Source: a virus (lineage: Duplodnaviria; Caudoviricetes). From it: a stretch of 64,000 bases of DNA. Shown piece by piece: positions 8,172 to 62,635 of the stretch. Each line of letters opens with the position of its first letter. Within the stretch, counting starts at the first letter, position 1. The notes under the pieces are model-generated. The model did not search any database. It was given only the letters and a program-made list of their open reading frames with translations, and had not been told where the DNA came from. The DNA lies in IMG/VR virus record IMGVR_UViG_2788500234_000002, positions 4,410 through 68,409 of that record; one strand, 5' to 3'. Both the position numbers and the translations under genes were made by a program.

Positions 8172-8176
8172 CAACT

Positions 8177-17828: not shown

Positions 17829-17830
17829 AG

Positions 17831-17847: not shown

Positions 17848-17855
17848 ATAAAGAT

Positions 17856-30550: not shown

Positions 30551-30551
30551 T

Positions 30552-34941: not shown

Positions 34942-34958
34942 TGTTTCACTATAAAACA
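34942..34958. promoter_or_regulatory. 17-bp operator-like palindrome copy 8 (TGTTTCACTATAAAACA)
   Basis: Between TMP and next gene; identical to copy 4. Confidence 0.65.
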
Positions 34959-34965: not shown

Positions 34966-35487
34966 ATGGATTTAGCGAAAGAACTTGCAAGGCAAGCAAA
35001 GAAAAAAGGCATTTGCAAACCGTGGTACAATGAATTGAAGTCATTGAACGGTGACAATATAAATGCGATGGCGCAAATGTATTTGAAAGGCATTGATTTT
35101 TGCCTTGCCAATGATTACCCCGACAACGGCTTCATTAGAACGCATTTCAAGGGCAAAATGGAACAATACGGGGTTTTCCTTGACGATGATATAAAAATCG
35201 AAAATAAGCCCAAATGCGTGTGTCTTGGGGCGACTTGTGGGCGTATCGAAATAACCGGGTTCAACGTGTGCGAGATATACGCCAAGCACAATGCCAAATT
35301 GAATGTCATTGCAAAAGACAATGCCTTTGTGGTCATTGATGTATTTGATGATGCCGTTGTCAATGTTTGCGCAAGCGACCGGGCGAAAGTGTGCGTAAAT
35401 CATTATGTCGGCAATGGTCAGGTAATCAAATATGCAATGGATGATGCAACTATAAAAGTCATAGAGAAACAGAAAAAAACTTATTGA
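34966..35487 (+). CDS. Conserved post-TMP protein of unknown function
   Basis: 173 aa; homologous to 59096-59605 (YLKGIDFCLANDYP vs YIRGIDFCIKNDYP). Confidence 0.8.
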   Translation: MDLAKELARQAKKKGICKPWYNELKSLNGDNINAMAQMYLKGIDFCLANDYPDNGFIRTHFKGKMEQYGVFLDDDIKIENKPKCVCLGATCGRIEITGFNVCEIYAKHNAKLNVIAKDNAFVVIDVFDDAVVNVCASDRAKVCVNHYVGNGQVIKYAMDDATIKVIEKQKKTY

Positions 35488-46591: not shown

Positions 46592-46625
46592 CTTTCCGTA
46601 AGCCTTTGACACTCAATGTGTATTG

Positions 46626-46710
46626 CGGAGAGGGAGGGATTCGAACCCCCGGAGCCTTTCAGCTCAACAGTTTTCAAGACTGCCGTAATCGACCACTCTA
46701 CCACCTCTCC
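46626..46710 (-). tRNA. tRNA-Ser (TGA)
   Basis: GGAGAGG/CCTCTCC acceptor stem, anticodon arm GCAGT-CTTGAAA-ACTGT, long variable arm, GGTTCGAATCC T-loop; CCA not encoded. Confidence 0.96.
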
Positions 46711-46901: not shown

Positions 46902-47218
46902 TCACAGCGTAAACTGCCACAGCGTAAACAAGCAGATTGAAATATCGGGAATCATAAGAAAGGTGTCCTTCCGAAGAAATCGCCAAATTTCAAGTTATAC
47001 GGGACACGTCGGCTCTCCCCTCCAAAAGGGGCGGGCCGCCATTCACTCCGGAAGGCATCGCCAATAACCTACAGTAATAAAACAAAATCAAAACAAACAA
47101 TAAACAAATGCAATTACAACCAGCTATTTACGACAGTGTAAGCCACTTTTGAAGAATCTGTTTTTGTATTTGTTTTGATGATATTTGGTGTATTTTTGTT
47201 GCTTATTTGTTACTTGTA

Positions 47219-47249
47219 TTTGCTGGGTAACAAAAAATGCCTACCTTTG
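47219..47249 (+). promoter_or_regulatory. Integrase promoter
   Basis: TTTG-N19-TACCTTTG, 27 nt before MAKKK start. Confidence 0.7.
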
Positions 47250-47275
47250 TAGTGGTAACATTCAATAGTAGCATT

Positions 47276-48424
47276 ATGGCAAAGAAAAAGAAAGCTGTCA
47301 AGGCTAAAGAGCCGATCAGATTACGATTCAAGGAACTTGCGAACGGGAATAAAAGTTTGTATCTGGACACTTATAGGGATGGGAAACGATCTTATGAGTT
47401 TCTGAAACTCTACCTTATACCGGAAACAAATGAGGAAGCCAAGATGAGGAATGCTAATACTCTACAGGCTGCAAACTCTATCAAAGCGCAAAAGATCATC
47501 GAACTTACCAATGGAGAAGCTGGAATTAGCAAAAATTCCACCAGATCAAAGATGCTTCTAATGGACTGGATGAGGTACTACAGCGAGCACAAGCTAAAGA
47601 CTGGGCAAAGTGCCGCTTTTCATATCCAGATAGATAAGGCTATAAAGCACCTCATTAAATATAAAGGTGAAGATATTACGATGAAAGAAGTGGATAAGGC
47701 TTATTGCATCGGCTTTATAGACTATCTGAATAATGCCAAACGGAAAGATGGAAAACCGATGGCTAAAGTTACAACCGCAGGTTATTTTAGGTGCTTGAAT
47801 TGTGCCCTAAATCTTGCTGTAAAGGAAGAGATCATTCCTTATAATCCAATTTCAAAAATAAATTCAGATGATCGAATCAAAATACCAGAAAGCACACGGG
47901 AATACCTGACTGTTGAGGAGGTAAAAAAGTTGATAGCAGAAAAATGTATCAATGAACCGACCAAACAAGCGTATTTATTCAGTTGCTTTTGTGGGTTAAG
48001 ATTGGGCGACATTCAGGCTTTGACTTGGGGAGATATTATTTTAGATGGCACACAATACAGGGCAAGAATAGTGATGAAGAAAACACAAAAAACACTCTAT
48101 TTGCCTTTGTCCGATGAGGCTTTGAAGTGGATGCCTGAACGGGGAGAGGCAAAAGATACGGATAAAGTTTTTCATCTTCCTTACCCTACTTACATAAATG
48201 TAGTGCTGAAAACATGGGCGCAAAATTGTGGAATAACAAAGACGGTGACATTTCACACCGCCCGGCATACATTCGCCACAATGATGCTTACATTGGGGGC
48301 TGATCTTTACACTACGAGCAAACTATTAGGGCATACACAAGTAAAAACTACCCAAATATATGCTAAGATAGTTGATAAGAAAAAAGATGAGGCGGTGAAC
48401 CTTGTAAATGAAATCTTCAAATAA
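47276..48424 (+). CDS. Tyrosine integrase (Bacteroidales type)
   Basis: N-terminal arm-binding SLYLDTY..RSYEFLKLYL; FSCFCGLR, TFHTARHTFAT, LLGHTQVKTTQIYA catalytic motifs; start taken at MAKKK. Confidence 0.95.
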   Translation: MAKKKKAVKAKEPIRLRFKELANGNKSLYLDTYRDGKRSYEFLKLYLIPETNEEAKMRNANTLQAANSIKAQKIIELTNGEAGISKNSTRSKMLLMDWMRYYSEHKLKTGQSAAFHIQIDKAIKHLIKYKGEDITMKEVDKAYCIGFIDYLNNAKRKDGKPMAKVTTAGYFRCLNCALNLAVKEEIIPYNPISKINSDDRIKIPESTREYLTVEEVKKLIAEKCINEPTKQAYLFSCFCGLRLGDIQALTWGDIILDGTQYRARIVMKKTQKTLYLPLSDEALKWMPERGEAKDTDKVFHLPYPTYINVVLKTWAQNCGITKTVTFHTARHTFATMMLTLGADLYTTSKLLGHTQVKTTQIYAKIVDKKKDEAVNLVNEIFK

Positions 48425-48431
48425 TGGATCT

Positions 48432-48611
48432 ATGGGCAAAGCTAAGAAAATGAAATGCAAGGTGTGTGGCTATGAATGGCTACAATATGAGGGAATAGGA
48501 CTGCAAGGAATAGAGATTGATCCTAAAGAAGATAAAGATATTATCAAATGCCCTCAATGCAATACAACAGATGTAGAACCAGATGAAAAGGAACATATCC
48601 TATGGGATTAA
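48432..48611 (+). CDS. Small zinc-ribbon protein
   Basis: CKVC..CPQC; 59 aa from MGKAKK. Confidence 0.6.
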   Translation: MGKAKKMKCKVCGYEWLQYEGIGLQGIEIDPKEDKDIIKCPQCNTTDVEPDEKEHILWD

Positions 48612-48904
48612 ATAATTGCTTTTCTGGCATACCAGAAGATTATACAAATTACAGGTGGTATAAGGGCGAACAAATGAATCCATACACAAAAGACACATTC
48701 CACCCCTTAGCCGCTTCTTTTTGGGAATATGAGCGTATCTTCCACTTGGGGTATCTTGGCAAGGCTGACACAAACAAAAGCCTTACAGAAGCCTACAATA
48801 AGTGGAAAGAAGAGTTTATCAATGATTATTTACCCGGTAAATCTCCAAATCCCTATGGTGACAACACCGACTGGGAAAAGGTTTTTGAAACGGGTTTGAA
48901 ATAG
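48602..48904 (+). CDS. Hypothetical protein
   Basis: 100 aa, overlapping upstream gene. Confidence 0.7.
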   Translation: MGLNNCFSGIPEDYTNYRWYKGEQMNPYTKDTFHPLAASFWEYERIFHLGYLGKADTNKSLTEAYNKWKEEFINDYLPGKSPNPYGDNTDWEKVFETGLK

Positions 48905-48927
48905 AATGTTTAAGAAAGCGGGTAACA

Positions 48928-50094
48928 ATGAACAAGACTATAGAACGAGAATACTTTAAGGCTTTTGAACGTGGCGGCACTGCCTATAAATGTGTAGAGG
49001 TGATAAAGCGCAAATATGATTTAGGATATTTGCCACAGAACACGCCAGAAGAAGAAAACGAGTTGGCACAACTTTCTCCAGAGGAAGAAAGAGAACATAA
49101 GAAATGGGAGCATTTTTATAATGTGGTATTGCCCGATCAGATCATACGGGAAACTGAATCTTTTGATTTTAGTGTCATAGATGGTGGGCGTATCTCCAGA
49201 ATTATTGAGGAAATAGAAGCCAATCTGAATGAGTGCAAAAGTGAAGCTGATAGAGAACGCTATTTATTCTCTTTGCTTTGTCCATTTGAAAGCACAATCA
49301 ACTTTTGTTATCCGATAGCCAATCTTGAACGGTTGGAGAAAGAGATCAATGAATGTAATGCCTCAAATGAATCAGAAGCGTGCGCATATTATCAAAAAGA
49401 TATTGATAGAATCAAGCACATACAAGATCGCTTAATAGATTTATGTTGGCAAGAGCATGAAAAAGGCACTGTAGAATATTGCTTTATGCGATGGTTTAGA
49501 AGTGCTAAGTCATTTTCCGATAGACTGGATGCCTTATTGCTTACTTATGGTATTGATTTGCTGGAACTGCAAAAGAAGAGTGGTATATATATAAAGCCAA
49601 AGTGCAGAAGTATAACTGATGTTGCTTATTACATTGGTAGCTATGAATTGGCACAACATTATATCTATACTTTGCCAAGTCATTCAAAATCTGATACAGA
49701 CCAAAGGAATGTCTATAAATCTGTTGAGAATAATACGTTTCACACAGGTAGTGATGAGGGGTACTTAACATCTGTATTTAGCAAGTTAAAAGATAACAAG
49801 TACATTGATGCGAACACTGATGTATCTACATGGTTGTACATTTGTGGAAAAGGTAATGTAGAAACGTTCACACCTATAAATTGGATGAGGAAGCAACAAG
49901 AATTAGCGTATCTCATAGATGCCTTATTTGGTGACACAGATCGTTATTTTTGGGAGATAACACAAAAAGTTTTTAGAGTAAAGGGAAGAACACCAAATAC
50001 AGATTCTATGAAATCTTTCCTCTCTAAAATAAGGAATAATTGGAAAGATAAACCAGATGAAATAGATGAATTAAAGGAGATTTTACGAGCGTAG
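48928..50094 (+). CDS. Hypothetical cargo protein
   Basis: 388 aa, AT-rich; no motif I can name. Confidence 0.75.
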   Translation: MNKTIEREYFKAFERGGTAYKCVEVIKRKYDLGYLPQNTPEEENELAQLSPEEEREHKKWEHFYNVVLPDQIIRETESFDFSVIDGGRISRIIEEIEANLNECKSEADRERYLFSLLCPFESTINFCYPIANLERLEKEINECNASNESEACAYYQKDIDRIKHIQDRLIDLCWQEHEKGTVEYCFMRWFRSAKSFSDRLDALLLTYGIDLLELQKKSGIYIKPKCRSITDVAYYIGSYELAQHYIYTLPSHSKSDTDQRNVYKSVENNTFHTGSDEGYLTSVFSKLKDNKYIDANTDVSTWLYICGKGNVETFTPINWMRKQQELAYLIDALFGDTDRYFWEITQKVFRVKGRTPNTDSMKSFLSKIRNNWKDKPDEIDELKEILRA

Positions 50095-50122
50095 ATTTAT
50101 AGATTAGATAACATTACATAAC

Positions 50123-50157
50123 AGAAAGGGTTACGGTTGGTTACTGTAACCCTTTCT
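50123..50157 (+). terminator. Intrinsic terminator
   Basis: Perfect 12-bp stem AGAAAGGGTTAC / GTAACCCTTTCT. Confidence 0.75.
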
Positions 50158-50243
50158 TCTTATAATAACACGATAGATTTGCACCATGTTAAACAGACAG
50201 CGGGGCAAGTGTACATAGTTCCAAAGTCACAAAATGATCGACA

Positions 50244-50528
50244 ATGGAAGAGAAATTAGATAAGATTCTGGCTTATTCCTTATTAGGTGCAAAAAATGTG
50301 CTGACAATGGAAGATGCCTCTTTATTAACGGGGTTGAGAAAAGCAACTTTGTACAGTATGACTTGTAAACGTCAGATACCTTACTATAAAAAGGGTAGAA
50401 TTGTTTACTTTGACCGTGCAGAATTAGAGGCATGGATGAAGCAAAATAGAGTTCCTACACAACAGGAAACAGAACGCAATGCGATTGCATACGTAGTGAC
50501 AGGAAAGCAGAAAGGAGGCGCACAATGA
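50244..50528 (+). CDS. Excisionase-family helix-turn-helix protein
   Basis: VLTMEDASLLTGLRKATLYSMTCKRQIPYYK..VYFDRAELEAW. Confidence 0.85.
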   Translation: MEEKLDKILAYSLLGAKNVLTMEDASLLTGLRKATLYSMTCKRQIPYYKKGRIVYFDRAELEAWMKQNRVPTQQETERNAIAYVVTGKQKGGAQ

Positions 50529-50986
50529 TACTGACGGATTACTATAGGCTGGTGCGCTTACAGGAATACGCCCAGAACAAGACACCCCGATTTGACTGCA
50601 TCGCCTCAACTGGTGAATATCCAAAGTTTGAAGAAATGGCGGCAAGAAGCAAGGTGAAGCGTTTCTATTGCTACTACAATGGAATCCCGGATTCATTCTC
50701 AAACAGAGCCAGACAAAAGGCAGAGAGAGCCATTACAAGCACTAAAAACATAAGCAGCGTATTTATTCCGAACATTAATAAACCGCTGTTTGGTTTTGGT
50801 GATGTAAAAGGCACACAGGACGCTATCCTCTTTGTGTTCTCAGCGGATTACAATCTGATGGAGATATTCATAGCAAGAGGATATAAGCACCAACAGAGAG
50901 CCTTGTATAATGCGATGGTAAAAGGTGAACTAAGCGCAGAAATCTACAAAATTAGGCAAATGGCTATCAACTTAACAAGATATTGA
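50525..50986 (+). CDS. Hypothetical protein
   Basis: 153 aa, coupled to HTH gene. Confidence 0.7.
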   Translation: MILTDYYRLVRLQEYAQNKTPRFDCIASTGEYPKFEEMAARSKVKRFYCYYNGIPDSFSNRARQKAERAITSTKNISSVFIPNINKPLFGFGDVKGTQDAILFVFSADYNLMEIFIARGYKHQQRALYNAMVKGELSAEIYKIRQMAINLTRY

Positions 50987-50987
50987 T

Positions 50988-51641
50988 ATGGATCAAAAGT
51001 GTATCAATGGCTTTATGAATGCTATAAATTCCCAATATAGTACATTCAATAGATTTAAGATTACAGATTATGATGAGGCAACAATCAGAGAGTTTTTGAA
51101 GATTTGCTATCAGAAAGAGGTTGAAATTAGAAGAAAGCAATTTAGGGAAGATGAGCAGATCAAATCACTTTTGAACAAGGCTGCAAAATGGCTTTGCTGT
51201 GATTGCAAGGTTGGATTATTGCTTTATGGTGGAGTTGGAAATGGCAAATCTACCTTATCTCGTGCTATATGCAAACTAATAGAGATGTTATATCCTAACA
51301 ATAGATTTGACGCAAAAGAAAATGCGCCTACGATTATTACAGCACTTGAGCTTGCTAAAATAGCAATAGATGAAAATCAACAGTTCTGCAAGATAAAAGA
51401 ATGCTCAAAGTTGATTATAGATGATTTAGGGACAGAGCCACCAACTATTAAAAGTTGGGGAAATGAAATATCTCCATTAACGGAAACTCTATACAATCGG
51501 TACGATAAGCAATTATTTACCATTGCCACATCAAATCTCAATGACAAGGAAATTAAGGAGCGTTACGGCATCCGTATCGCTGATAGAATTGAAGAAATGT
51601 TTGATAAGTTGTATTTCAATGGAAACAGCTACAGGAGATAA
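50988..51641 (+). CDS. DnaC/IstB-like ATPase
   Basis: GGVGNGKS, IIDDLGTEP, ATSNL, RYGIRIADRIEEM. Confidence 0.85.
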   Translation: MDQKCINGFMNAINSQYSTFNRFKITDYDEATIREFLKICYQKEVEIRRKQFREDEQIKSLLNKAAKWLCCDCKVGLLLYGGVGNGKSTLSRAICKLIEMLYPNNRFDAKENAPTIITALELAKIAIDENQQFCKIKECSKLIIDDLGTEPPTIKSWGNEISPLTETLYNRYDKQLFTIATSNLNDKEIKERYGIRIADRIEEMFDKLYFNGNSYRR

Positions 51642-52311
51642 GGGCATTAGGGATTCATTCATATTCTACAGGAGCTTCCAAGAAGCAATAGACGGCTGTA
51701 GTAAAGAGGATCAATTAGTCATATACAAAGCCATAGCCAATTATGCTTTAGATAGAATTGAGCCTGAACTATCTGGAGTTGCAAAAGTTGTCTGGGTGCT
51801 TATAAAACCGCAACTTGATGCAAACTGGAAACGGTTCTACAATGGATGCAAAGGTGCAGAGTTTGGTGTGAAAGGTGGTGCGCCCAAAGGAAATAAAAAC
51901 GCATACAAGGGCAAAACAACCCCAAAACAACCCCAAGTAAACCCCTTAGCCGTTGAAAAATCAACCCCTAATAATAATGTAAATGACAATGTAAATAATA
52001 ATGATAATTGTAATGTTAATGTAGAAATAAAAGCACATACAAAGAGTGAAACGAAGCGTTTCACTAAACCAAGTATAGATGAAATAGAAAAATACATTTC
52101 TGAGAACTCATATTCTGTAAATGCTCAATCTTTTTATGATTACTATGAATCAAATGGCTGGATGGTTGGTAGAAATAAAATGAAAGATTGGAAAGCAGCA
52201 ATACGGAAATGGGAACACAGCGAATGGAATAATAAAAACAAAACTCCTAAACTAAGTTTTGAAATGGCTGGATCAGACAATAGAGAGGGAGAATTTACAA
52301 CAACACTTTAA
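51619..52311 (+). CDS. Replication initiator (DUF6291-like N-terminus)
   Basis: SFIFYRSF..AIANYALD N-terminus; C-terminal YYESNGWMVGRNKMKDW domain shared with prophage initiator; start taken at METATG. Confidence 0.75.
   Translation: METATGDKGIRDSFIFYRSFQEAIDGCSKEDQLVIYKAIANYALDRIEPELSGVAKVVWVLIKPQLDANWKRFYNGCKGAEFGVKGGAPKGNKNAYKGKTTPKQPQVNPLAVEKSTPNNNVNDNVNNNDNCNVNVEIKAHTKSETKRFTKPSIDEIEKYISENSYSVNAQSFYDYYESNGWMVGRNKMKDWKAAIRKWEHSEWNNKNKTPKLSFEMAGSDNREGEFTTTL
51913..51968 (+). repeat. AAAACAACCCC iteron-like repeats, probable element origin
   Basis: Tandem copies 51913 and 51924, partial copies 51939 and 51963, then AT-rich AAT repeats. Confidence 0.5.
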
Positions 52312-52322
52312 AAACAAAAATT

Positions 52323-52499
52323 ATGGACGCAGAAGAAAGACTGAAAAAGTTGGAAGCGGATATGCAGAATGTTATAGCCGCAAAGGATAAAGAGATAGAG
52401 GAACTCAAAAAGCAACTGGAGGAAGCTAAAAAGCTGCCAGAAGATGATGCGGATGATGAGTATGCAGAAGAACTTGTAGAAAAACTAAGTGCCAAATAA
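52323..52499 (+). CDS. Small acidic coiled-coil protein (58 aa, below ORF-track cutoff)
   Basis: MDAEERLKKLEADMQNVIAAKDKEIEELKKQLEEAKKLPEDDADDEYAEELVEKLSAK fills the gap between neighbours. Confidence 0.7.
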   Translation: MDAEERLKKLEADMQNVIAAKDKEIEELKKQLEEAKKLPEDDADDEYAEELVEKLSAK

Positions 52500-52502
52500 T
52501 TT

Positions 52503-53180
52503 ATGCTTATGGAAGAAAGAATACTGGTCTATAAAGATCCTGTTGAGTATGACGGCACAATAAAGCGTTACCAATGGCTTGCAAAGATGATGCAAGAATT
52601 GGCAGACGGGCTTAAAAAGCTGAATGTTGAGCCAACCATAACTCTGATAAAACGCCTCATTAAAGGAGAAGATTTGAGGGCGTTAATTGCCTCAAAGAAT
52701 GTATCTGACAATTTCGGGGATATGCCTAAAGTTATGCAGAAAACCTTTCAGGAAATGTTCGACAAAGAAAATGAGGCTGATTACAAAGAACTCATAGAGG
52801 AAAAGGCTGCAAGAATTGGGGGCGTGCTGAATAAAGGAGAGTACATCATTAATCGATCTTTCTTTGATTTGAAAGATGGTAAAATTATCCTTTCTCCAGA
52901 TCATATCAAGGAAATTGAATCCCGTTGTTGCGTCTATATTGATACTCCGGGAAGAGAAGCCGTTTATAAGAATTGGCTTCAACTGGTAGAAGCAATGCGC
53001 CAATTTGATGAGGCTGTGAAGAACGCTGCCAAGATAGAAGTGTCAGAGTTTCAAAGGCATAGTGGGATTGATCCGGATTACTTACAAGCAGTAGCAGTTC
53101 CGGGGAGATTTTCACTGGCAAAGATCAACTATGAGGGTAAATTAGTGTTGAATGGAGAAAACTTTGAGTATATCCAGTAG
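52503..53180 (+). CDS. Hypothetical protein
   Basis: 225 aa. Confidence 0.7.
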   Translation: MLMEERILVYKDPVEYDGTIKRYQWLAKMMQELADGLKKLNVEPTITLIKRLIKGEDLRALIASKNVSDNFGDMPKVMQKTFQEMFDKENEADYKELIEEKAARIGGVLNKGEYIINRSFFDLKDGKIILSPDHIKEIESRCCVYIDTPGREAVYKNWLQLVEAMRQFDEAVKNAAKIEVSEFQRHSGIDPDYLQAVAVPGRFSLAKINYEGKLVLNGENFEYIQ

Positions 53181-53197
53181 CAGCATTATTGAGAATG

Positions 53198-53225
53198 ATT
53201 ACAGAGGGCTTAGGCTCTCTGTAAT
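53198..53225 (+). terminator. Hairpin, possible terminator
   Basis: ATTACAGAG / CTCTGTAAT inverted repeat. Confidence 0.5.
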
Positions 53226-53259
53226 TTCATAAAACGGCATAAAAACGGCATTAAGTGAT

Positions 53260-53727
53260 ATGGGAAAAGGTGTAAAAGGCTTTCAAAGAGGCAATAAGGT
53301 GGGCTTACAGAATCGCTTTTCGGCTGAAAAACAGCCCCAAAAACGAGGCAGAAAACCATCTATGTATAAGAAAGCGTTGGATTCTGGATGTGAATTGAGC
53401 AAAGAGGACTTTGTATATGTAATCCGGTGCTTGCTTGAAATGAGCGTTGGAGAATTGCAACAGCTACTTTCCAAATCGGCAAAGTCTGAAATAGAGTTGC
53501 CTATATGGGTTGAGGCTTTCATCAAAGGATTGTTTGCCGATGTAAAGCGTGGACGGACTGACTTATTCAGATATTCCATGAATCTTATATTTGGGAAAGA
53601 GCCTCAACACATACAAATAACCAATAATATTAACCAAGTTAATTATACATCACCGGATATATCGGTTCTTTCTGATGAGGAAAAGGAAGTGTTTGTTTCT
53701 TTATGGCAAAAGACACATAGAAAGTGA
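53260..53727 (+). CDS. Terminase-small-subunit-like protein
   Basis: GFQRGNKVG..RFS..QP.KRGRKP N-terminus, IFGK, C-terminal LSDEE motif as in many TerS. Confidence 0.5.
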   Translation: MGKGVKGFQRGNKVGLQNRFSAEKQPQKRGRKPSMYKKALDSGCELSKEDFVYVIRCLLEMSVGELQQLLSKSAKSEIELPIWVEAFIKGLFADVKRGRTDLFRYSMNLIFGKEPQHIQITNNINQVNYTSPDISVLSDEEKEVFVSLWQKTHRK

Positions 53728-53771
53728 TTTATAACCAGTTCCAGCATAAGGAGCATAAATAGCAGAACATT

Positions 53772-54005
53772 ATGAGTATTAATTGTAAAGAGATAGAGCA
53801 TTATAAAGAAGTCATTGTTAAGGCAGCGGGAAATGATCTATATCACAGTGATTGCCCGGAACTGCAACTTGACACTTTAGCACTTATTGTTGATGGGTTA
53901 GTTAAAGACAATAAAGATGGAAAGAATGAGCAACTTATAGGTTTTCTTGCCCATATAGGCAAATCCCTCAACGAGTTAATCAAGTATCGTAATTTAATGA
54001 AGTAA
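53772..54005 (+). CDS. Hypothetical protein
   Basis: 77 aa before TMP. Confidence 0.6.
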   Translation: MSINCKEIEHYKEVIVKAAGNDLYHSDCPELQLDTLALIVDGLVKDNKDGKNEQLIGFLAHIGKSLNELIKYRNLMK

Positions 54006-54009
54006 ATGT

Positions 54010-57000
54010 ATGGAAAATATAGGTGGAGCATTAGCATTCAAAGCCACTCTTGATATAGATGATTTCAAGGTATCAAGCGAAGCGATGGGGCGTTATATCA
54101 AAAACGCTTCTGATAATGCCGTGCTGGAAGCAAACCGCATGGAGCAATCGTTTCTGACCTTTGCGCAAAACGGAGCGAGATATATTGTTTCCTACCTTGT
54201 TGGGCAAGGAATGATGAGCCTTGTGCAAAGCATAGTGCAAGTGCGTGGGCAGTTCCAGCAACTTGAACTGGCTTTCAATACCATGTTGAGAAGCACTGAA
54301 AAATCACAGGTGCTTATGTCGCAACTGGTAGATACAGCCGCTAAAACTCCGTTTGACCTTACCAGCATAGCGCAAGGAGCAAAACAGATGCTTGCTTTCG
54401 GATCAAATGTGGGAAGCGTGGTAGATGAGATCGTGATGCTTGGTAATGTGGCTTCTGGTGTGAGTGCGCCACTTGGAGATCTTATCTACCTCTATGGAAC
54501 ATTGAGATCGCAAGGCAGGGCATACACGGTGGATATTCGCCAGTTTGCCGGGCGTGGTATTCCTATCTATGAAGAGTTGGGAAAGGTGCTTAACGCAGAC
54601 AGGCAGGAACTGAACAAGCTGGTAACGGAGGGAAAAGTTGGATTCCCGGAAGTTGAAAAGGCATTTAAGAACATGACCAGTGAGGGCGGTATTTACTTCA
54701 ACCTCATGCAAGAGCAAAGTAAGTCGCTTACTGGTATGCTTTCAAACTTGGGCGATGCTTGGGATAGTGCGCTTAACAAGATCGGCAAGGATAATGAAGA
54801 TTTGTTCGCTGGAGCTATTCAGGGTGCTATAGACCTTGTAGAGAATATGGATGAGATTATCCGTATTGTACAGGCTGTTACTATTGCCTATGGAAGCTAC
54901 AAGGCGGCAATAATGCTGAATACACTTGCCACAAAGGGATATACCGGGGTTGCTTTGATAGACAACACGGTTAAACAGGCAAAGATAGCCTTACTGAAAG
55001 CAGAAGCCACCATTACAGGGCAGACAGCGGCACAAATAAAGGCTATGACAGCTGTACAACAAGCCCATGTAGCCGCATTGCAAAAGGAGCTTACAGCGGA
55101 AGAGCAAGCCAATCTGGTAAAGAAACTCCGTATTGCCACCATACAGCAACTTTTGACAGCACAACAGCAGGAATACTTATCCAACCTTAACCTTACCGCC
55201 TCTTCTGCCAATTATGAGGCTGTAGCTACTTCTGTATTGACTGTTGAGCAAAGGGAAGCACTTAGCAAAACCGATCTATCGGCTAAGAGTGCTGTATATC
55301 GTGCGGCTCTGGAGCAAGAAGTGGCAGCAAAAAGGAGTAATATAGTCGCTTCTGTAGAAACTTTGCGGGAAGAAGTAAAATTGGCTGCAAGTCGGGCTGA
55401 ATCTGCCAAGAAAAACTCTATATCAGCGATGCAAGCTACAGAAGCGGCACGGGCTACTTTGCTTGCCGCCAGAGAATCGGGGAAAGCCTCAAAGATAGCT
55501 TCAGCAGAAAAAAGATTAGAAACAGCCCAAACAAAACAACTTACTTTAGCCCAAGAACGTATGGCAGCAGTTGCTGACTTCAACGCTAAAAAGAAGCAGT
55601 TGGAAGCGGCAGCAATCCAGCAATCAAGGTTAGCCTCATCCATAGACACAGCAGCAAAAACAGCACAAGCTACCACTACCAATGTTCTAACATTAGCGAC
55701 TAACAAACTTACAGCCTCATTTAAGGCATTGTGGCTGTCAATGAAAGCAAATCCTATTACATGGGTCGTTTCATTGGTTGGAATGGCTTTCAGTGCGATT
55801 TCTATGCTTTCTTCAAAGACTAAAGAACTGGAGGAAGATACGGTAAGTTTGGCTAATTCAACCAAACGAGCTACAGAGCGATTCAGTGAAGAAGCTGGAA
55901 AAGTTGAGGCTTTGGAGAAAATAATCAGAAATAGCAATGTTGCATACGATGAGCGCAACAGAGCTTTAAATGAACTGAAACAGATTATACCCGGATATAA
56001 TGCAGAATTGACCAAAGAGGGTACTATTATCAATGACAATGCCGATGCAATCCAGCGGTACTTAAGTTTGTTAGAAAAGCAAATAAGGATGAAAGCGGCA
56101 CAAGAGGAACTGGAAGCAGCTTATAGGGAAAAGAGGCTCAAAGAAAAAGAGATCATCCAAAAACAAGCAGCCTATGATGAAGCGAGTGCCAACGTTCCAG
56201 ATGTAGCCTATGGCGATGCTGGAGCACAATATCAGATGTATGCTTTGAGGCAAGCAGGGAAAGCGGAAAGACAACTAAAACAGGCTCAAAAGGAACTCAC
56301 AGACATAAACAAGACTATTGAAGCGTTGAACCAAGAGATCAGCGACTCTTCAGGGGAAATAGACAAATCTTCCGAGAGTGCAAAAACTTATTCAGAGCAG
56401 ATAGCAGACACGAGAACACAAATTGCCACGCTTACAAAAGAGTTGGAAGATTTGCGATCTGGAAAAGTTGTCAAAGACAATTTAGCAGGAGAGATAGATG
56501 CCAAAATAAAAGAACTCAATACGGCAAAAAAGAATCTCGAATTGCTTACTGGTATTACAAGCTCTGGGAATAGCAGTAACAGCGCAAATCAGTTATCACA
56601 GAAAGAACTGGAGGCACAACGTGAATTGGAAGAGGCACGTATCTCTATCATGGAAGATGGCTATGAGAAACGTAAAGCCATTCTGGACTTACAGCACAAA
56701 GAGAATCTGGATCGCATAGACAGAGAGGAAAGAGAACTGGAGAAAGCACGTAAAGCAGCCGGAAAAGGTGGATTGACTGCAACGGAGCAAGAGGGATTCG
56801 ATGAGAGAAGAAGCATTGAGAATACCAGTTATCAGAGAGAGCAAAACAAGCTGTTTGATGGTGAAATAGCTTACAAAAAACAGCAGTATGAGTTGTATTT
56901 CCGCTGGGTGCGTAATCTGGGCGAAGATGTAGCGAACACACAGTTCGCAAACTTGCTGAAAGGCGGTGCTTCATTCAAACAATATCTGGAGAACCAGATA

Positions 57001-59094
57001 GCGGAAATGAACCAGAAGAAAGAAGCCGGGACACTGACAGAGGGCGAGGGAAACCACCTTATTTCCCTGAATATGCAATATGATGAGATCACGGGCGCAA
57101 AGTCCGCAATGGATCTTTTCAAGGAAAGTGTTACGGAAGCAATATCGCAAGCCAGCACACTTGCAGAGAGAGTGCAAGCCATAGCCGATGCCAAAGAAAG
57201 GCTTGCAAGCGGAAGTACAGGGCTTGTTGGTGATGATGAGAAAGCGGAAGCAAGCCTATTCATATCGGAGAAGCAAGCGGAAGCGGATAAAGAAATTCAG
57301 GATAAGATACTGAATAATTACAGAAGTTATGAGGAACAAAAGAAAGATATTCAGGAGGAATACGCTTTATTGCGCTCCGAGGCTCAAAAGACAAACGATC
57401 AGGAACGTATAAAGATGATTAATGAGGCAGAGAATGAAGCACTTTCAACTCTTAATGCCAATTTCCTTAAACAGTCTGATAGTTGGAAATCTTTGTTTGA
57501 AGATCTGGATAACCTTTCTGCCAAAGAGATTGCAAAGCTGTTATCTGATATTGAAACACAACTTGATAATTCTGATTTGAAACTTAGTCCAGTTGACTAT
57601 AAGGCGTTGATTGATAGCCTGAATAAGGCAAGGCAGGAACTTATATCAAAAAACCCTTTTACGGCTTTAGGCGCATACTTCGATGATTATATTAAAGCTA
57701 AAGAAAAGTTGGCAAAAGCAAAAGCAAACTTACTGGCAGGAAAGGGATCTGACAAAGATGTGCAAAATGCAGAAAAAGAAATGAGAGAATCCGCAAAAGG
57801 CGTAACAGAATCAGTTGAAGCAATAACAAGAGCCGCTACAGAATGCGGTAGTTCGCTTGCTTCAATGTTTGAAAGTTTTGGTGCGGATGGATTAGCAGAA
57901 GGTCTTGGGACTGCAACAGAGCTTTTAGGACAACTGGGAAATACAGCGGCAAGTGTTGGCAAGCTGATGAGCGGTGATATTCTTGGCGGTATTACAGGTA
58001 TAGTAAGTTCCGTAACTTCTGTTATCGGTATATTCAATAAGTTACATGATAAGAAGTATGAAAAAAGGATCGAACAATTACAGGATGATATAGATAACTT
58101 AGAGCGTTCTTACAGCCGTTTGGAACGTGCATTCAATAACACATATTGGGTTTTTGATGAGCAACAGAGAGAGGGATATGAAAAAAATATCAATCTAATA
58201 AAAGAACAGATCTCCGCTTTGGAGAAACAACAGGCTGTTGCACTTAGAAGCTGGAACTTCGTAGAATACGCAAAACTTACAGCGCAAATTAAGGAGCTGA
58301 ACGGTGAGCTTCAAAAAGCGGAAGAAAGCGGAGATATGTTTTCTATATACGAGGCTCAAAAAGAAAGTCTTAGGAAACAGCAAGACGATCTTAGAAAACA
58401 GATTCAAGCAGAACGGGACAAAAAAGACACTGACAATAACCGTATAAATGAATGGGAAAATCAAATAGAAGCCATTAACCAACAAATAGAGGATCTGGAT
58501 AAGGCAATGATGGAAACTTTGGCTGGTACAGACGTTCAAAGTGCCATTGATGAATTTGCCGATGCCCTTGTAGATGCTTATTGTCAAGGTGAAGATGCGG
58601 CAAAGGCATTGGGTGAGGTAACGAAAGAAACTCTTAAAAATGCGGTTGTGGAAGCCTTAAAACGCCAGTTCCTTGCTAAAGCCATTAATGATGCCGTGCT
58701 TTATCTTGGTGAAGCCATGCAAGACAATGTGCTATCAGACTATGAGAAGAAGCGGTTTGAGGAAATGGTGAAGCTGGGAGCGGATAAATTCAATATGGCT
58801 TTGGAGAGTGTAGGCGACTGGATAAAGGATCAGACGGAAGAAGAAGAGGAAGCCGATCCTCTTACTGGTGCTGTTACTTCCATGAGCGAGGAAACAGGAG
58901 GTGTGATTGCCGGGCGTTTGAATGCCTTTGTAATCAACCAGAGCGATCAGATAGCGATTATGAGGCAATATCTTATTTATCAAATAGAAATAGCGGAAAA
59001 CACACGTTATTGTAGAAGACTTGATGAAATTGCTGATTCGTTAAAGAGAATAGAAAACAAAGATAATTCATTACTATCACAAGGAATATCGTAA
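54010..59094 (+). CDS. Tape measure protein (1694 aa)
   Basis: Tape-measure domain AAKTPFDL..GAKQMLAFG..DIRQFAGRGIPIYEEL; N- and C-termini homologous to prophage TMP. Confidence 0.92.
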   Translation: MENIGGALAFKATLDIDDFKVSSEAMGRYIKNASDNAVLEANRMEQSFLTFAQNGARYIVSYLVGQGMMSLVQSIVQVRGQFQQLELAFNTMLRSTEKSQVLMSQLVDTAAKTPFDLTSIAQGAKQMLAFGSNVGSVVDEIVMLGNVASGVSAPLGDLIYLYGTLRSQGRAYTVDIRQFAGRGIPIYEELGKVLNADRQELNKLVTEGKVGFPEVEKAFKNMTSEGGIYFNLMQEQSKSLTGMLSNLGDAWDSALNKIGKDNEDLFAGAIQGAIDLVENMDEIIRIVQAVTIAYGSYKAAIMLNTLATKGYTGVALIDNTVKQAKIALLKAEATITGQTAAQIKAMTAVQQAHVAALQKELTAEEQANLVKKLRIATIQQLLTAQQQEYLSNLNLTASSANYEAVATSVLTVEQREALSKTDLSAKSAVYRAALEQEVAAKRSNIVASVETLREEVKLAASRAESAKKNSISAMQATEAARATLLAARESGKASKIASAEKRLETAQTKQLTLAQERMAAVADFNAKKKQLEAAAIQQSRLASSIDTAAKTAQATTTNVLTLATNKLTASFKALWLSMKANPITWVVSLVGMAFSAISMLSSKTKELEEDTVSLANSTKRATERFSEEAGKVEALEKIIRNSNVAYDERNRALNELKQIIPGYNAELTKEGTIINDNADAIQRYLSLLEKQIRMKAAQEELEAAYREKRLKEKEIIQKQAAYDEASANVPDVAYGDAGAQYQMYALRQAGKAERQLKQAQKELTDINKTIEALNQEISDSSGEIDKSSESAKTYSEQIADTRTQIATLTKELEDLRSGKVVKDNLAGEIDAKIKELNTAKKNLELLTGITSSGNSSNSANQLSQKELEAQRELEEARISIMEDGYEKRKAILDLQHKENLDRIDREERELEKARKAAGKGGLTATEQEGFDERRSIENTSYQREQNKLFDGEIAYKKQQYELYFRWVRNLGEDVANTQFANLLKGGASFKQYLENQIAEMNQKKEAGTLTEGEGNHLISLNMQYDEITGAKSAMDLFKESVTEAISQASTLAERVQAIADAKERLASGSTGLVGDDEKAEASLFISEKQAEADKEIQDKILNNYRSYEEQKKDIQEEYALLRSEAQKTNDQERIKMINEAENEALSTLNANFLKQSDSWKSLFEDLDNLSAKEIAKLLSDIETQLDNSDLKLSPVDYKALIDSLNKARQELISKNPFTALGAYFDDYIKAKEKLAKAKANLLAGKGSDKDVQNAEKEMRESAKGVTESVEAITRAATECGSSLASMFESFGADGLAEGLGTATELLGQLGNTAASVGKLMSGDILGGITGIVSSVTSVIGIFNKLHDKKYEKRIEQLQDDIDNLERSYSRLERAFNNTYWVFDEQQREGYEKNINLIKEQISALEKQQAVALRSWNFVEYAKLTAQIKELNGELQKAEESGDMFSIYEAQKESLRKQQDDLRKQIQAERDKKDTDNNRINEWENQIEAINQQIEDLDKAMMETLAGTDVQSAIDEFADALVDAYCQGEDAAKALGEVTKETLKNAVVEALKRQFLAKAINDAVLYLGEAMQDNVLSDYEKKRFEEMVKLGADKFNMALESVGDWIKDQTEEEEEADPLTGAVTSMSEETGGVIAGRLNAFVINQSDQIAIMRQYLIYQIEIAENTRYCRRLDEIADSLKRIENKDNSLLSQGIS

Positions 59095-59095
59095 T

Positions 59096-59605
59096 ATGGA
59101 ACTGGTACACCAAATCAAACAGGATGGAATAGCAAAGGGATTGTGCCGTTTGTGGCAAATGAAGCTCAAACCGGGTTTGGGCGTGGATTCCCTTGCTGAA
59201 TTGTATATACGAGGGATAGACTTCTGTATAAAGAATGATTATCCAACACTGGACTTCCTACGCACAAACTTCAAAGGGAAGTGTGAGGATTACGGTGTGT
59301 ATGTGGATGATGAAGTTGTGGAGAAAAACAGGAAAGATGTAGTGTTGAACGGTGACTGCAAAGCGATGTTGGAGTATGACGGTTTTGCCGTTTCAAACAT
59401 CTATATCCGGCACAACTCCAAAGCCTCTGTGAATGTGGGCGACCATGCTATTGTGACCATTGATATTTTCGATAACTCATACCTTGCTATCGCTGTGGCT
59501 GGGAAGTATGCAAAAGTACTTGTAAATGTTTATGGGAAAGCAGCTGTAGAAATAGCTGGTGGCATAAACATAAAGATTAGATATGTAGGCAAAGATACAT
59601 ATTGA
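59096..59605 (+). CDS. Post-TMP protein, homologue of 34966-35487
   Basis: 169 aa; GLCRLW, GIDFCIKNDYP, FKGKCEDYGVYVDD align with prophage gene. Confidence 0.85.
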   Translation: MELVHQIKQDGIAKGLCRLWQMKLKPGLGVDSLAELYIRGIDFCIKNDYPTLDFLRTNFKGKCEDYGVYVDDEVVEKNRKDVVLNGDCKAMLEYDGFAVSNIYIRHNSKASVNVGDHAIVTIDIFDNSYLAIAVAGKYAKVLVNVYGKAAVEIAGGINIKIRYVGKDTY

Positions 59606-59623
59606 AGTATTAACTGGGTTAAT

Positions 59624-59658
59624 ACAGAAGAGAGGTGATAAAAAAGCCTCTCTTTTGT
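59624..59658 (+). terminator. Intrinsic terminator after TMP operon
   Basis: ACAGAAGAGAGG / CCTCTCTTTTGT stem. Confidence 0.7.
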
Positions 59659-59688
59659 TTGTTATATGTAATAAACACGATATATTTG
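59658..59688 (+). promoter_or_regulatory. Promoter of lipoprotein gene
   Basis: TTTG-N19-TATATTTG. Confidence 0.65.
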
Positions 59689-59738
59689 TATCGTATTAAA
59701 GAAATTATAGCGTTTGCTATTGTTTTTGGGTAAAGAAA

Positions 59739-59828
59739 ATCGCCAATAATTCAACACTCCAAAAAGCAATAAGTGAAACGCCACGTTGTGCGTGGGCGTT
59801 ACTTATGGAGTGTGGGCGTTGTGGCGAT
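59739..59828 (+). other. Long nested RNA hairpin in 5' leader
   Basis: ATCGCCA/TGGCGAT, CACTCC/GGAGTG, ATAAGT/ACTTAT, AACGCC/GGCGTT, CACG/CGTG nested pairs. Confidence 0.6.
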
Positions 59829-59915
59829 GCCTCTTTACCAATGAGTGATCGTCCACGCTATTTTTTAAGGATGGATCTCTCATAAAGAGGAATTTTAATC
59901 TATAATGAATGCGAT

Positions 59916-60506
59916 ATGAGAAAGATCCTATTTACGCTTTGCCTGATAGCTTTGATAACAGGATGCAGCAAAGAAGATGAGCCAGCAGTGCCAACCAATA
60001 CGTCAATAGATGTTAGTGAGTTGGTTTCATTTATCGGGAAAAGTCCCCAATATGTCAAAGACAACTTTAAAGATGGCACTTTGGCAAACGAGGGTGGAAC
60101 ACTGGGTAAGACAGAACTAAGCTATCATTATAAAACGAATGACAATGAATATCGGATCGTTTTCAGTGGTAACACAGAAAATGAAATGACTGATATAACT
60201 GTTATTGGTGACTTTAACACATACGCCAATGGAATAGAAGTCTATAAAAAGGAAATGGACTTAATAAATGAATCCATTGATCATGTAACATATATTGCCC
60301 GATACTATGATAAGATGGCTGGATTGATGGATTTTTCAAGCCGTAACGAGTTCTGGCAATATGTATTAGAAAATGATGTAAGTAGAAGCGTAACGGAAAC
60401 TTGGTGGATAGTGAATGAGGCTACCCAATATTTTACCGTAGATGGTACATACGATAGAGATATTAATAGGATTACCGTGCAGATCGAAAATAAAGTGTAC
60501 GATTGA
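59916..60506 (+). CDS. Lipoprotein of unknown function
   Basis: MRKILFTLCLIALITGC SKEDE signal/lipobox with acidic export-like motif; own promoter and terminator. Confidence 0.8.
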   Translation: MRKILFTLCLIALITGCSKEDEPAVPTNTSIDVSELVSFIGKSPQYVKDNFKDGTLANEGGTLGKTELSYHYKTNDNEYRIVFSGNTENEMTDITVIGDFNTYANGIEVYKKEMDLINESIDHVTYIARYYDKMAGLMDFSSRNEFWQYVLENDVSRSVTETWWIVNEATQYFTVDGTYDRDINRITVQIENKVYD

Positions 60507-60530
60507 TCCGGTATAATAAGTAAGTATATG

Positions 60531-60560
60531 GAAAGCTGCCTATATTGGTGGCTTTTTTTG
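60531..60560 (+). terminator. Intrinsic terminator
   Basis: AAAGCTGCC..GGTGGCTTT stem then T tract. Confidence 0.55.
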
Positions 60561-60618
60561 TTTATGAAAGCCACATGAGACATTCGGGAAGAAGATTGGA
60601 TATATGGATTTCAGCAAG

Positions 60619-60725
60619 TGTGTTTATTGAACACATCAAAGTGTGTTTGGTGAACACATTTTGCTGATTATCAACAAAATAGATTGAATTTTATTTGTTT
60701 GTTCGGATCATAGCATATAACTTTG
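60619..60725 (+). promoter_or_regulatory. Two TGTGTT-N5-AACACA palindromes (60619-60635, 60642-60658) upstream of TTTG-N20-TAACTTTG promoter (60694-60725)
   Basis: Read directly from sequence. Confidence 0.6.
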
Positions 60726-60752
60726 TTCGCAGAAACGATAAGGTTATATGCT

Positions 60753-61037
60753 ATGATTGTAATAGAACTATATGAACTGAAAAATATCTGTATGGAAATG
60801 GCAAGTTTGGGAGCGGCTAATTATGTCAAAATGACCAAACCTGCTGATGATCTCATATCACAGCGTGAGGCGTACAGGGAGTTTCAGGAGTGCCGGGTAA
60901 AGAAGTGGGTACAAAAAGGATTGATCACTACTACCCGTGGGGGTGCTTCCATTCGTTCAAAGGTTCTTTATTCAAGGGCTGACCTTATGGCAGTTGAGAA
61001 AGCGGAAAAACTGAATTGTATAATCAATAAACTGTAG
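60753..61037 (+). CDS. Phage-type winged-helix-like protein
   Basis: LISQREAYREF..RVKKWVQKGLI..SKVLYSRADL pattern; start at MIVIEL. Confidence 0.6.
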   Translation: MIVIELYELKNICMEMASLGAANYVKMTKPADDLISQREAYREFQECRVKKWVQKGLITTTRGGASIRSKVLYSRADLMAVEKAEKLNCIINKL

Positions 61038-61041
61038 TAAT

Positions 61042-61329
61042 ATGGATATGAACAAACAAAATGGCTTTAGCTATGCAAACGAGCCAGCAAACTATCAAGA
61101 GGCACGGGAATCAATTTTAAGCCTTATGCGTAACCTCACCAAAGCGAAAAAGGACATGAAAGCTATATCAGAGTTGGATATAGTGGTGGAACAATTCCAA
61201 GAAAGAGCAAGAGAAATTATTGGAGAATTAAGTCAAGCGGTTTATTCACTGGGTGAAATTTACGGCTATACCCTCTCTGATGATATTTTGGGAAATGTAG
61301 AACTTGTTAATGAAAAATGCCATGCTTAA
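61042..61329 (+). CDS. Hypothetical helical protein
   Basis: 95 aa. Confidence 0.65.
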   Translation: MDMNKQNGFSYANEPANYQEARESILSLMRNLTKAKKDMKAISELDIVVEQFQERAREIIGELSQAVYSLGEIYGYTLSDDILGNVELVNEKCHA

Positions 61330-61564
61330 AAAGTCCACACCACAAAAGATTAGAGCGGATATTGATAATATAGTGAAAATGTGCCTTTCATTACAAAATG
61401 CAATCGGAAATCTTTTAGAGGAAGAAGCCCTTAAAAATATGTATTTTAATGAATTGCATAAACTTGATGATAATGTAATGGGGATATTGAATGATCTACA
61501 TCCGATTATTGGCTACTCTGTTGTTTTAGATGTTGAAAACTCATACAAACATGAATGTGAATAA
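61322..61564 (+). CDS. Hypothetical helical protein
   Basis: 80 aa from MLKKSTP; IIGY motif resembles IYGY of preceding gene. Confidence 0.6.
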   Translation: MLKKSTPQKIRADIDNIVKMCLSLQNAIGNLLEEEALKNMYFNELHKLDDNVMGILNDLHPIIGYSVVLDVENSYKHECE

Positions 61565-62186
61565 CATACCTTTTGGAAGCCAGCAATCCCATTTTACAGG
61601 CAAACCAGATATTTTGCCGGGCGGTTTCACTTTTGATAAAGAACATCAAAAGTTAAGCGTTGGTGATATTGTTTCAGCAGGAACATTGGGGATATGTGAT
61701 GAACTGAATAGAACTATACGGATAATAAAAACCGCAAGAGTTTCAAATATTAGTGAAGATGGGAGAAAAGTAGAGTTGTGTACTTACCCATACAATGATC
61801 CATGCTTTAAGGTTGGGGAAAGGGTGTATAAAGCGGACTGCACAAATGTTGATTTCTCAACAGTTCCAAAGATTGAGAAGATCAAAGAAACAGGCGTTTA
61901 TGTGCTCTATCTATCTTGCCCTATTCCAGACTTGAAAGAGAATGATATTATAGAGCAAATGGTAGAATCTGACGGGATCGCTGTAGAGATAGGGAAAGCG
62001 GACTGCTTAACGATTAGGAATGTTGAACTAACGGATCTTGATGCTGGAGTAGATGTCACACAAAGTACAGGAATATTTTCTGTAAAGGAGAAACTTATCC
62101 CACCTATACCAAATAGCCAGAAAGATCCTACAGGGAAATTCTTAATTGGCAACCCACATATAAAATTAATATCCATTTTAGAGTAA
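61551..62186 (+). CDS. Divergent homologue of prophage head decoration protein
   Basis: DILPGGFTF, GTLGIC..IIKTARV, FKVGERV align with DIPGGVTV, GTPLGV..VCKTAQI, FKVGDRF of 25898-26464. Confidence 0.65.
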   Translation: MNVNNIPFGSQQSHFTGKPDILPGGFTFDKEHQKLSVGDIVSAGTLGICDELNRTIRIIKTARVSNISEDGRKVELCTYPYNDPCFKVGERVYKADCTNVDFSTVPKIEKIKETGVYVLYLSCPIPDLKENDIIEQMVESDGIAVEIGKADCLTIRNVELTDLDAGVDVTQSTGIFSVKEKLIPPIPNSQKDPTGKFLIGNPHIKLISILE

Positions 62187-62376
62187 TTTCTAACTACCCA
62201 ATTTTTATAATTATCAAGTGTGAGAGTGGAGAGCCGGGAGGTTGTGCCACTCTTTTTCATACCAGACATACCAGAACGAGTGAGAAAACAACGGGAAAAC
62301 GACGGAAAAGTATCAATAGAGCCTCTGAAAGTACTATTTGGATGTGTGCTTTTTTGAGGAGCTTTGTATGCGTGTT

Positions 62377-62407
62377 TTTGCTGTTTCAGATGGAAATTCT
62401 ATCTTTG
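62377..62407 (+). promoter_or_regulatory. Promoter near right end of element
   Basis: TTTG-N19-TATCTTTG. Confidence 0.6.
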
Positions 62408-62462
62408 TATCAGAAAAGCCCGCCAAAGGCGATAAATTAGCCGTTTTGTTACTGGAATGTTA

Positions 62463-62494
62463 CCCGCTTTCTTAACAAGCGGGCTTTTTATTTT
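62463..62494 (+). terminator. Intrinsic terminator before right att
   Basis: CCCGCT / AGCGGG stem followed by CTTTTTATTTT. Confidence 0.6.
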
Positions 62495-62635
62495 GTATAT
62501 CAGATATTTACATGAAACTCTGTTTGTTATCGCCAAACGCCCGTTATACGTAAATGACGGCCCGCCTTTCTTTTTCAGAAGATGTTTAATGTATAACGTC
62601 CTAAGGCTGCCGGGGAACAAAAAACTCAAACTTTT

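Follow-up and report, generated by a model that had tools for sequence, protein, structure and literature searches.

The closest described counterparts of the element reported here are the PLEs of Vibrio cholerae (elements resembling phage-inducible chromosomal islands), all of which encode a tail assembly chaperone and a tape measure protein (TMP), and some of which also encode a hub (bioRxiv 10.1101/2025.01.29.635557). In PLE11 virions, the TMP and baseplate hub BhuB of the satellite replace those of the phage; tail length in this system tracks TMP length, and deletion of tmp cuts transduction by 96-99.9% (10.1101/2025.01.29.635557). The same preprint remarks that unrelated satellites carry tmp genes, with Bacteroidota unmentioned (10.1101/2025.01.29.635557). 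Putative Escherichia coli satellites of phi92/Inny-like phages carry a TMP together with a tail-tip partner (Barth, Dunham and Seed 2023, PMC10448857). A search of the literature on Bacteroides and other Bacteroidota satellites with a TMP found no report, and the Bacteroides uniformis phage paper (PMC8143477) is without virion proteomics. Here, we analyzed a 64,000-nucleotide stretch of Caudoviricetes DNA, hereafter called the window (bases 4410-68409 of the single 68.4-kb IMG/VR record IMGVR_UViG_2788500234_000002, in which a terminal repeat is absent), where a 15.5-kb integrative element carries its own TMP gene and, directly behind it, the gene of a protein of about 170 amino acids (aa), which we call post.

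The window, whose genes lie nearly all on the + strand, holds two such pairs. In prophage 1, a temperate siphophage occupying positions 1 to ~46,600, TMP1 (1460 aa; 30552-34934, +) is followed by post1 (173 aa; 34966-35487, +). In the element (47054-62540, +), TMP2 (1694 aa; 54010-59094, +) is followed by post2 (169 aa; 59096-59605, +), with a single nucleotide between stop and start codons (TCG TAA T ATG). A preliminary description of this DNA had quoted the two TMP lengths and several terminal motifs, all of which are present as it gave them. It had also placed a homologous protein of ~170 aa after each TMP, and indeed post1 and post2 are 40% identical over 148 aa (E = 4e-39) and both match phrog_10156, a PHROG entry without function or any earlier recorded link to TMP (E = 3e-57 and 4e-69, respectively). 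Its statement that the two TMPs share their ends needs adjustment on one side. The C-terminal homology is real; however, BLASTP aligned TMP1 residues 932-1460 with TMP2 residues 1098-1694 (30% identity, E = 3e-55), which is the last third of the proteins (~530-600 residues) rather than a short tail, and found no other significant alignment outside this block. At the other end, a 17-residue motif is common to both proteins, its GGxLxFK match being not significant when taken alone (E = 0.84). Two further TMPs, those of Bacteroides phage Versailles and of a Porphyromonas phage, contain this motif in the form M..I.GG.L.F(K/R)..LD, and the TMP of Riemerella phage RAP44 contains part of it.

Profile matches and long open reading frames (ORFs), and for TMP1 also the position in a tail module, identify both proteins as predicted siphophage tape measures. 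TMP1 matches phrog_21917 over its full length and, at its C terminus, phrog_9959 ("tail length tape measure", E = 5e-65), while a Pfam search gave no match. It is 44% identical over the full length to the annotated tape measure of Porphyromonas phage005a, and its gene has the tail-tube/chaperone genes on one side and a Dit-like gene on the other. TMP2 matches phrog_9959 over its full length, and its residues 73-259 match Pfam TMP_3 (PF20155; E = 5e-21, 75.8 bits against a cut-off of 41). It is 56-63% identical to the TMP of Versailles, and its residues 1-300 and 701-1100 are 99% identical to the complete phage locus L012. In both of these phages, the homologue of TMP2 sits between tube/chaperone genes and a distal tail gene; these flanking tail genes are absent from the element.

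We found that the TMP2-post2 cassette of the element is shared with complete phages as one block of DNA (54008-59573, +). In blastn comparisons of the window element with five phage loci (L012, L013, L016, L022, and L026), the homologous blocks start at 54005-54010 and end at 59541-59573, with no further homology in 20 kb. Likewise, over the 20 kb compared, the element in locus L011 and the phage L012 share a single 5.5-kb block with 96.5% DNA identity (4967-10478), which runs from 2 nt before the TMP start codon (4969) to ~30 nt before the post stop codon. Four further element lineages, each compared with its own nearest phage, give the same picture: the blocks shared by L043 and L049, L058 and L080, and L027 and L063 begin exactly at the TMP start codon, and that shared by L083 and L056 begins within ~1 nt of the called TMP start. 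The far ends of the blocks all lie at the post stop codon or slightly short of it (locus coordinates 10344-10513), and none falls within TMP or in the gap between the genes. These alignments show recombination moving the cassette, as one block, between ~15-kb elements and complete Bacteroidales phages that carry a diversity-generating retroelement (DGR).

The phylogeny of post is in line with such exchange. In a tree of 49 post proteins, the element copies fall at five separate places among phages, so that five changes of label between element and phage are needed, and the well-supported branches force at least four of them. The phage nearest by post is also the phage nearest by the last 200 aa of TMP in four of the five element lineages, the lineage of L027 being without a close phage. 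Identities to the nearest phage, for post and for the TMP end, respectively, are 91-95% and 96-99.5% (L012), 90% and 81.5% (L049), 86% and 91.5% (L056), and 73% and 93-94.5% (L080 group). Over 1175 pairs, similarity of post and similarity of the TMP end are correlated, with a Spearman coefficient of 0.80.

The two genes are also found side by side far beyond the window. TMP lies next to post in each of the 53 viral-contig loci retrieved with post2 and each of the 27 retrieved with post1, as well as in 16 genome loci, some of which do not reach far enough to include the TMP. The isolated phages Versailles, Porphyromonas phage005a, and LoVEphage are annotated with the series TMP, post, Dit-like gene, large tip gene. 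Post1 is 51% identical to the product of the gene that follows the Porphyromonas phage TMP, and post2 is 66% identical to its Versailles counterpart. Thus, the TMP1-post1 pair groups with the Porphyromonas phage and the TMP2-post2 pair with Versailles, and the window holds two lineages of one cassette. Judging by gene order, TMP and post are a two-gene tail-core cassette that is widespread in Bacteroidota siphophages, and many phages of Bacteroides, Parabacteroides, Prevotella, Porphyromonas, and Riemerella have a member of the post family in their tail module.

In one element lineage the two genes have become a single one. In L027 the TMP stop codon is lost, and TMP and post form one ORF of 1631 aa (...SLLSQGIS-YS-MEVV...; L027:5615-10507 and L117:3001-7896). 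Exactly the same fused product occurs on at least five contigs, which lie in six index blocks and include a 103-kb scaffold, and it is therefore not an assembly slip. A search for longer, fused forms of post returned none, although the L027 fusion exists. A maintained fusion of this kind argues that post would act beside the C terminus of TMP, with one copy per TMP chain. Both genes are also under purifying selection: dN/dS between two element copies is 0.19 across TMP, falls to 0.05 in the final 170 aa of TMP, and is 0.09 in post, which indicates that TMP and post are in use and not decaying. The earlier proposal that the TMP and the gene after it travel as a pair is therefore upheld by the cassette boundaries in five element lineages, the common nearest phage, the fusion, and this selection. 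It had gone on to propose that the ~170-aa protein is a TMP-specific adaptor or co-ejected factor; joint inheritance and exchange fit a TMP-specific partner that is probably in the particle.

Within TMP, conservation is uneven. The last 194 aa of TMP2 (58510-59091, +; DPLTGAV.SMSEETGGVIAGRLNA..INQ ... LLSQGIS) contain 28 invariant alignment columns and, together with post, are 98-100% identical across element copies. Directly before them lies a recombinant patch (aa ~1101-1500; 57310-58509, +) with a hydrophobic segment at residues 1324-1342. In this 400-aa patch, identity to other copies of the element falls to just 37%, against 98-100% in the flanking parts, and the best match of the patch elsewhere among ~110 loci is 73%. 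The patch in the window copy has been swapped while the last 194 aa and post stayed 99-100% identical to other copies, and recombination, to judge from such alignments, often cuts inside TMP and not between the TMP C terminus and post. The equivalent patch of TMP1 (aa ~950-1300; 33402-34451) also lies over hydrophobic segments, and its best match anywhere in the ~110 loci is ~40-52%. Both patches are 21-60% identical to relatives that are otherwise 98-100% identical. The patch looks like an often-replaced region of the ruler, possibly under diversifying pressure.

At 50% identity the post family falls into 596 clusters, and 266 close homologs were recovered; almost every member is ~170 aa long. 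An AlphaFold model of post2 built from a 121-sequence alignment (pLDDT 97.2) predicts five helices (residues 2-58, within a helical domain of residues 1-60) followed by a beta-solenoid of eleven short strands (68-163). Of the near-invariant residues C17, D42, F43, C44, P50, and G86, all except G86 are placed in the helical domain. Post had no match in Pfam, NCBIfam, or a PDB sequence profile search, and an Atlas search returned only unnamed viral clusters. Neither sequence nor fold similarity was detected to any solved tail protein. There was also no Dit match for post in PHROGs, Pfam, or the fold searches; in prophage 1 the Dit signature sits in the next gene, directly after post1, which encodes a 401-aa protein (35489-36694, +; phrog_14220 and, at E = 1e-7, phrog_33, "distal tail protein Dit"). 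According to the model, post is a helical domain plus a beta-solenoid, an uncharacterized family with no solved look-alike.

The boundaries of the element were set from 13 other copies in different chromosomal contexts, and its ends share the direct repeat TATCGCCAA (47054-47065 and 62525-62540). Copies that share an identical post protein have at least six different right-hand contexts, and for copies that share an identical integrase at least five contexts were found on the left. Each copy has flanks of its own, which points to low site specificity of integration. A Bacteroidota-type tyrosine integrase (47237-48424) is followed by small ORFs, a 388-aa protein, an HTH_17 protein, a DnaC-like loader, a DUF6291 protein, and proteins of 225, 155, and 77 aa, and then by TMP2, post2, a lipoprotein, and four small or medium ORFs; a host Big_2 surface-protein gene lies 3' of the element. 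No capsid, portal, or terminase match was found among the genes of the element. In keeping with the preliminary description, which spoke of an element and its helper, the second TMP copy sits in an element that is mobile and lacks head and packaging genes. With an integrase, its own predicted replication genes, and no complete virion module, the element has the general gene content of a satellite. Diverged relatives (L011, L027, L043, L058, L082, and L083) keep a 153-aa protein, the DnaC-like protein, and the 225-, 155-, and 77-aa proteins, followed by TMP and post. None of these six loci has a Dit-like, tip, or reverse transcriptase gene, and a tblastn search with the Dit-like protein found no match in any element-type locus.

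Taken together, we favor a reading, with a probability of roughly 60%, in which post is the partner of the TMP end, and the satellite uses the TMP-post cassette to make hybrid tails with a cognate helper of the Versailles/L012 type. Post would bind or cap the conserved stretch of ~190 residues with which its own TMP ends. The TMP C-terminal end is expected to sit in the tail tip, so that each TMP would need its own post, in a one-to-one ratio, for tail assembly to be seeded on the tip complex; at infection, post would probably exit the particle together with the TMP. On the model of the cholera PLE satellites, the element would contribute a TMP-post pair of its own, and this pair would join Dit, tip, tube, and chaperone proteins supplied by the helper in hybrid tails for element-carrying particles. 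The cognate phage would belong to the Versailles/L012 lineage and not be the neighboring prophage 1, because the cassette of the latter is only 30-40% identical to that of the element, because no element is found among 27 loci whose post is of the phage-1 type, and because the 17-bp palindrome of prophage 1 (consensus TGTTTTATAGTAAAACA; nine copies there) has no copy in the element at up to three mismatches. A broader proposal, that a widespread satellite family of gut Bacteroidales phages builds hybrid tails with its own ruler and ruler cap and keeps re-copying the TMP-post block of its current helper by recombination, is one that we advance only tentatively. Under that proposal, the 170-aa protein would be a new obligatory TMP-bound component of the tail tip of Bacteroidota siphophages.

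Several observations weigh against the favored reading. Adjacent genes co-inherit by linkage alone. The cassette is nearly identical to that of the phage, which leaves no obvious advantage of the PLE kind. Among the contigs of four runs there was no excised or circular form of the element, only a graph branch at 46,960-47,064. Searches with the post model (Foldseek PDB, VIA-align wide, and BFVD) found only generic beta-solenoids, such as CsgA (Z = 9.9), CARP, and bactofilin (Z = 7-8). Lastly, post is in places more closely tied to tip genes than to TMP. In Riemerella phage RAP44, which otherwise has the same gene order, a toxin-antitoxin pair is inserted between TMP and post, and post overlaps the next tail gene. 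In the distant relatives L114 and L115, a divergent gene lies upstream of post, which directly precedes tip-like genes of 265 and 1362 aa. In prophage 1, one copy of the palindrome (34942-34958) sits inside the 31-nt spacer between TMP1 and post1.

The last three cases suggest that post may belong to the tip operon. Post would then be an ordinary tail-tip (baseplate) part working with the Dit-like and large tip proteins, linked to TMP by position only; it would ride along as the next gene, and the breakpoints would mark where similarity ends. We consider this explanation unlikely, yet it keeps real weight. It does not account well for the five element lineages that retain post with TMP while none retains a Dit-like gene, for homology blocks that end with post and never within TMP or between the genes, or for a fusion that is reproducible.

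A non-structural role is a lesser contender than a tip component. As a chaperone for the C-terminal part of TMP, for example keeping it soluble ahead of tip-complex formation, post would be absent from the finished particle. Its small size, a start codon 1 nt after the TMP stop, and the lack of similarity to any solved virion protein would suit this role. In addition, the elements do not have the chaperone-like ORFs that phages carry upstream of TMP, and so some TMP-handling function might be needed. However, a maintained covalent fusion is hard to square with release of a chaperone unless the product is cleaved, and a beta-solenoid fold is more typical of structural proteins. On balance, we regard a chaperone role as rather improbable.

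The genes at the place of the missing ORFs differ between the two kinds of locus. Just 5' of the phage TMPs lies a small ORF (30250-30551 in prophage 1; L012:4669-4968, L007:3287-3586, and L010:3616-3915) with the conserved motif FGWTYDYLLxGIxWxxVQxMMxDA, probably a frameshift extension of the tail assembly chaperone. Element-type loci have instead a 77-aa gene directly upstream of TMP (53772-54005, +), which has no phage counterpart and lacks the FGWTYDYLL motif; its homologs in L027, L043, L058, L082, and L083 are 44-56% identical.

Slightly less probable still is an explanation that had been raised in the preliminary description, in which the TMP of the element is deliberately unlike that of the helper and thereby escapes superinfection exclusion or uses another entry route, with longer tails as a further consequence. 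TMP2 does differ strongly from TMP1 of the neighboring prophage, the TMPs carry the often-replaced patch around hydrophobic segments, and the own TMP of PLE11 escapes an inhibitor of the phage TMP. However, a distinct TMP is contradicted by the 96.5% DNA identity between L011 and L012 and by the finding that four of the five element lineages each have a matching phage lineage. The cassette is thus phage-matched, and it is the neighboring prophage that represents a different TMP lineage. Two further points against this explanation are that the element lacks the palindrome of prophage 1 and that, among 27 loci, no phage-1-type cassette was found in an element. The tail extension of ~35 nm is correct as arithmetic (234 residues at 0.15 nm each), but in length the TMPs of the elements match or fall short of their nearest phage counterparts: 1676/1694, 1795, ~1690, 1400, and 1462 aa, as compared to 1676-1783, 1810, ~1774-1800, 1735, and ~1782 aa, respectively. 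Finally, the notion that the second pair is functionless debris of a decayed prophage, for which one could cite damaged copies such as L069 (without TMP residues 1-1515) and L005 (split TMP), is contradicted by identical 15.5-kb copies at many chromosomal sites, an identical integrase found in 658 index blocks, a gene set conserved across five diverged lineages, and the low dN/dS of 0.05-0.19, and we give it almost no credence.

Other features of the element are recorded here. The 155-aa protein (53260-53727) combines a helical core with a basic N-terminal arm that is invariant (MGKGVKGFQxGNxxG..F..QP.KRGRKP); every element lineage keeps it, and phages lack it. From its basic arm it was considered as a small terminase, a candidate that was dropped, as Pfam, NCBIfam, a model with a pLDDT of 71, and Foldseek all came back blank; a scan of genome contigs with this protein found nothing. 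In three loci an extra phage-derived gene lies between the 155- and 77-aa genes (L027:4914-5363, L058:5098-5550, and L082:1585-1902). It is a homolog of a neck-module protein of prophage 1 (28160-28756), and its DNA is 75-77% identical to that of the matching phages. Right after post, this element lineage alone encodes a predicted lipoprotein of 196 aa (59916-60506; weak LPAM_1 match), possibly a cargo or exclusion factor, and other lineages have different genes at this position. A 218-aa gene (61530-62186) and a 188-aa gene of prophage 1 have a common PHROG match without pairwise similarity. The damaged copy in L069 (12145-13188) has a deletion from the 77-aa gene to TMP residue 1515, and the last 179 TMP residues and an intact post remain.

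The virion genes of prophage 1 around its own cassette include small and large terminase, portal, and a head-morphogenesis protein (15853-21911), a major capsid protein (26484-27590), and, beyond the Dit-like gene, a 1356-aa tip protein and a 488-aa tail protein; it also encodes the reverse transcriptase of a DGR. The label "Hankyphage-like" does not suit this prophage, because the hankyphage is transposable and prophage 1 has its right end at a tRNA-Ser(tga) gene (46625-46710, -). The 340 bp between this gene and the element contain a GC-rich hairpin (GGCGGGCCG...CGGCCCGCC), which is split by the element and recurs elsewhere. The contigs of run X1 break and branch exactly in the hairpin region (46960-47064). 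The join of prophage 1 and element thus crosses a short repeated hairpin that is a branch point in another assembly, and their adjacency should not be over-read.

As to known systems, a small protein gene right after the TMP gene recalls lambda, in which the C terminus of gpH assembles in the tail tip with the small proteins gpM, gpL, and gpI, encoded right after the TMP gene. In the phages described here, post is followed by a separate Dit-like gene. The capsid-forming phage-inducible chromosomal islands (cf-PICIs) likewise carry a partial virion module and take the rest from the helper, with the parts reversed: cf-PICIs make heads and steal tails, while the element carries tail-core genes and no head genes. 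In the putative E. coli satellites of phi92/Inny-like phages, capsid and decoration genes are present as well; these satellites occupy tRNA or lysR sites in Enterobacteria and have large lytic phages as relatives. In contrast, the element has no capsid gene, uses many insertion sites, and resides in Bacteroidales.

The likeness to the PLE is the closest: an integrase-bearing element without a full set of virion genes brings its own TMP and a tail-core neighbor, here at the level of genes. The element is without a capsid-remodeling gene. No homologs of the PLE chaperone or hub were found in the element, whose TMP partner is not a hub but a 170-aa helical/beta-solenoid protein. The PLE parasitizes a lytic myophage, and its proteins are 19-41% identical to those of the phage; the cassette of the elements reaches 96.5% DNA identity to that of a temperate siphophage and has been repeatedly re-exchanged with such phages. 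Because the PLE and the E. coli satellites are in print, this kind of system is already known. What is new is the host group and siphophage setting, the unnamed 170-aa partner, the repeated gene-exact exchange, and the natural fusion. The recently discovered strategy of a satellite that brings its own tape measure would thereby extend beyond a lytic Vibrio myophage, to temperate siphophages from human and animal guts, and a large unnamed phage protein family (~600 clusters) is offered a testable role, for which the TMP-post fusion and the isolated phage Versailles provide direct experimental handles. The main departure from the precedent lies in the cassette itself, which is not a diverged private version but one exchanged repeatedly with phages, with breakpoints at gene boundaries.

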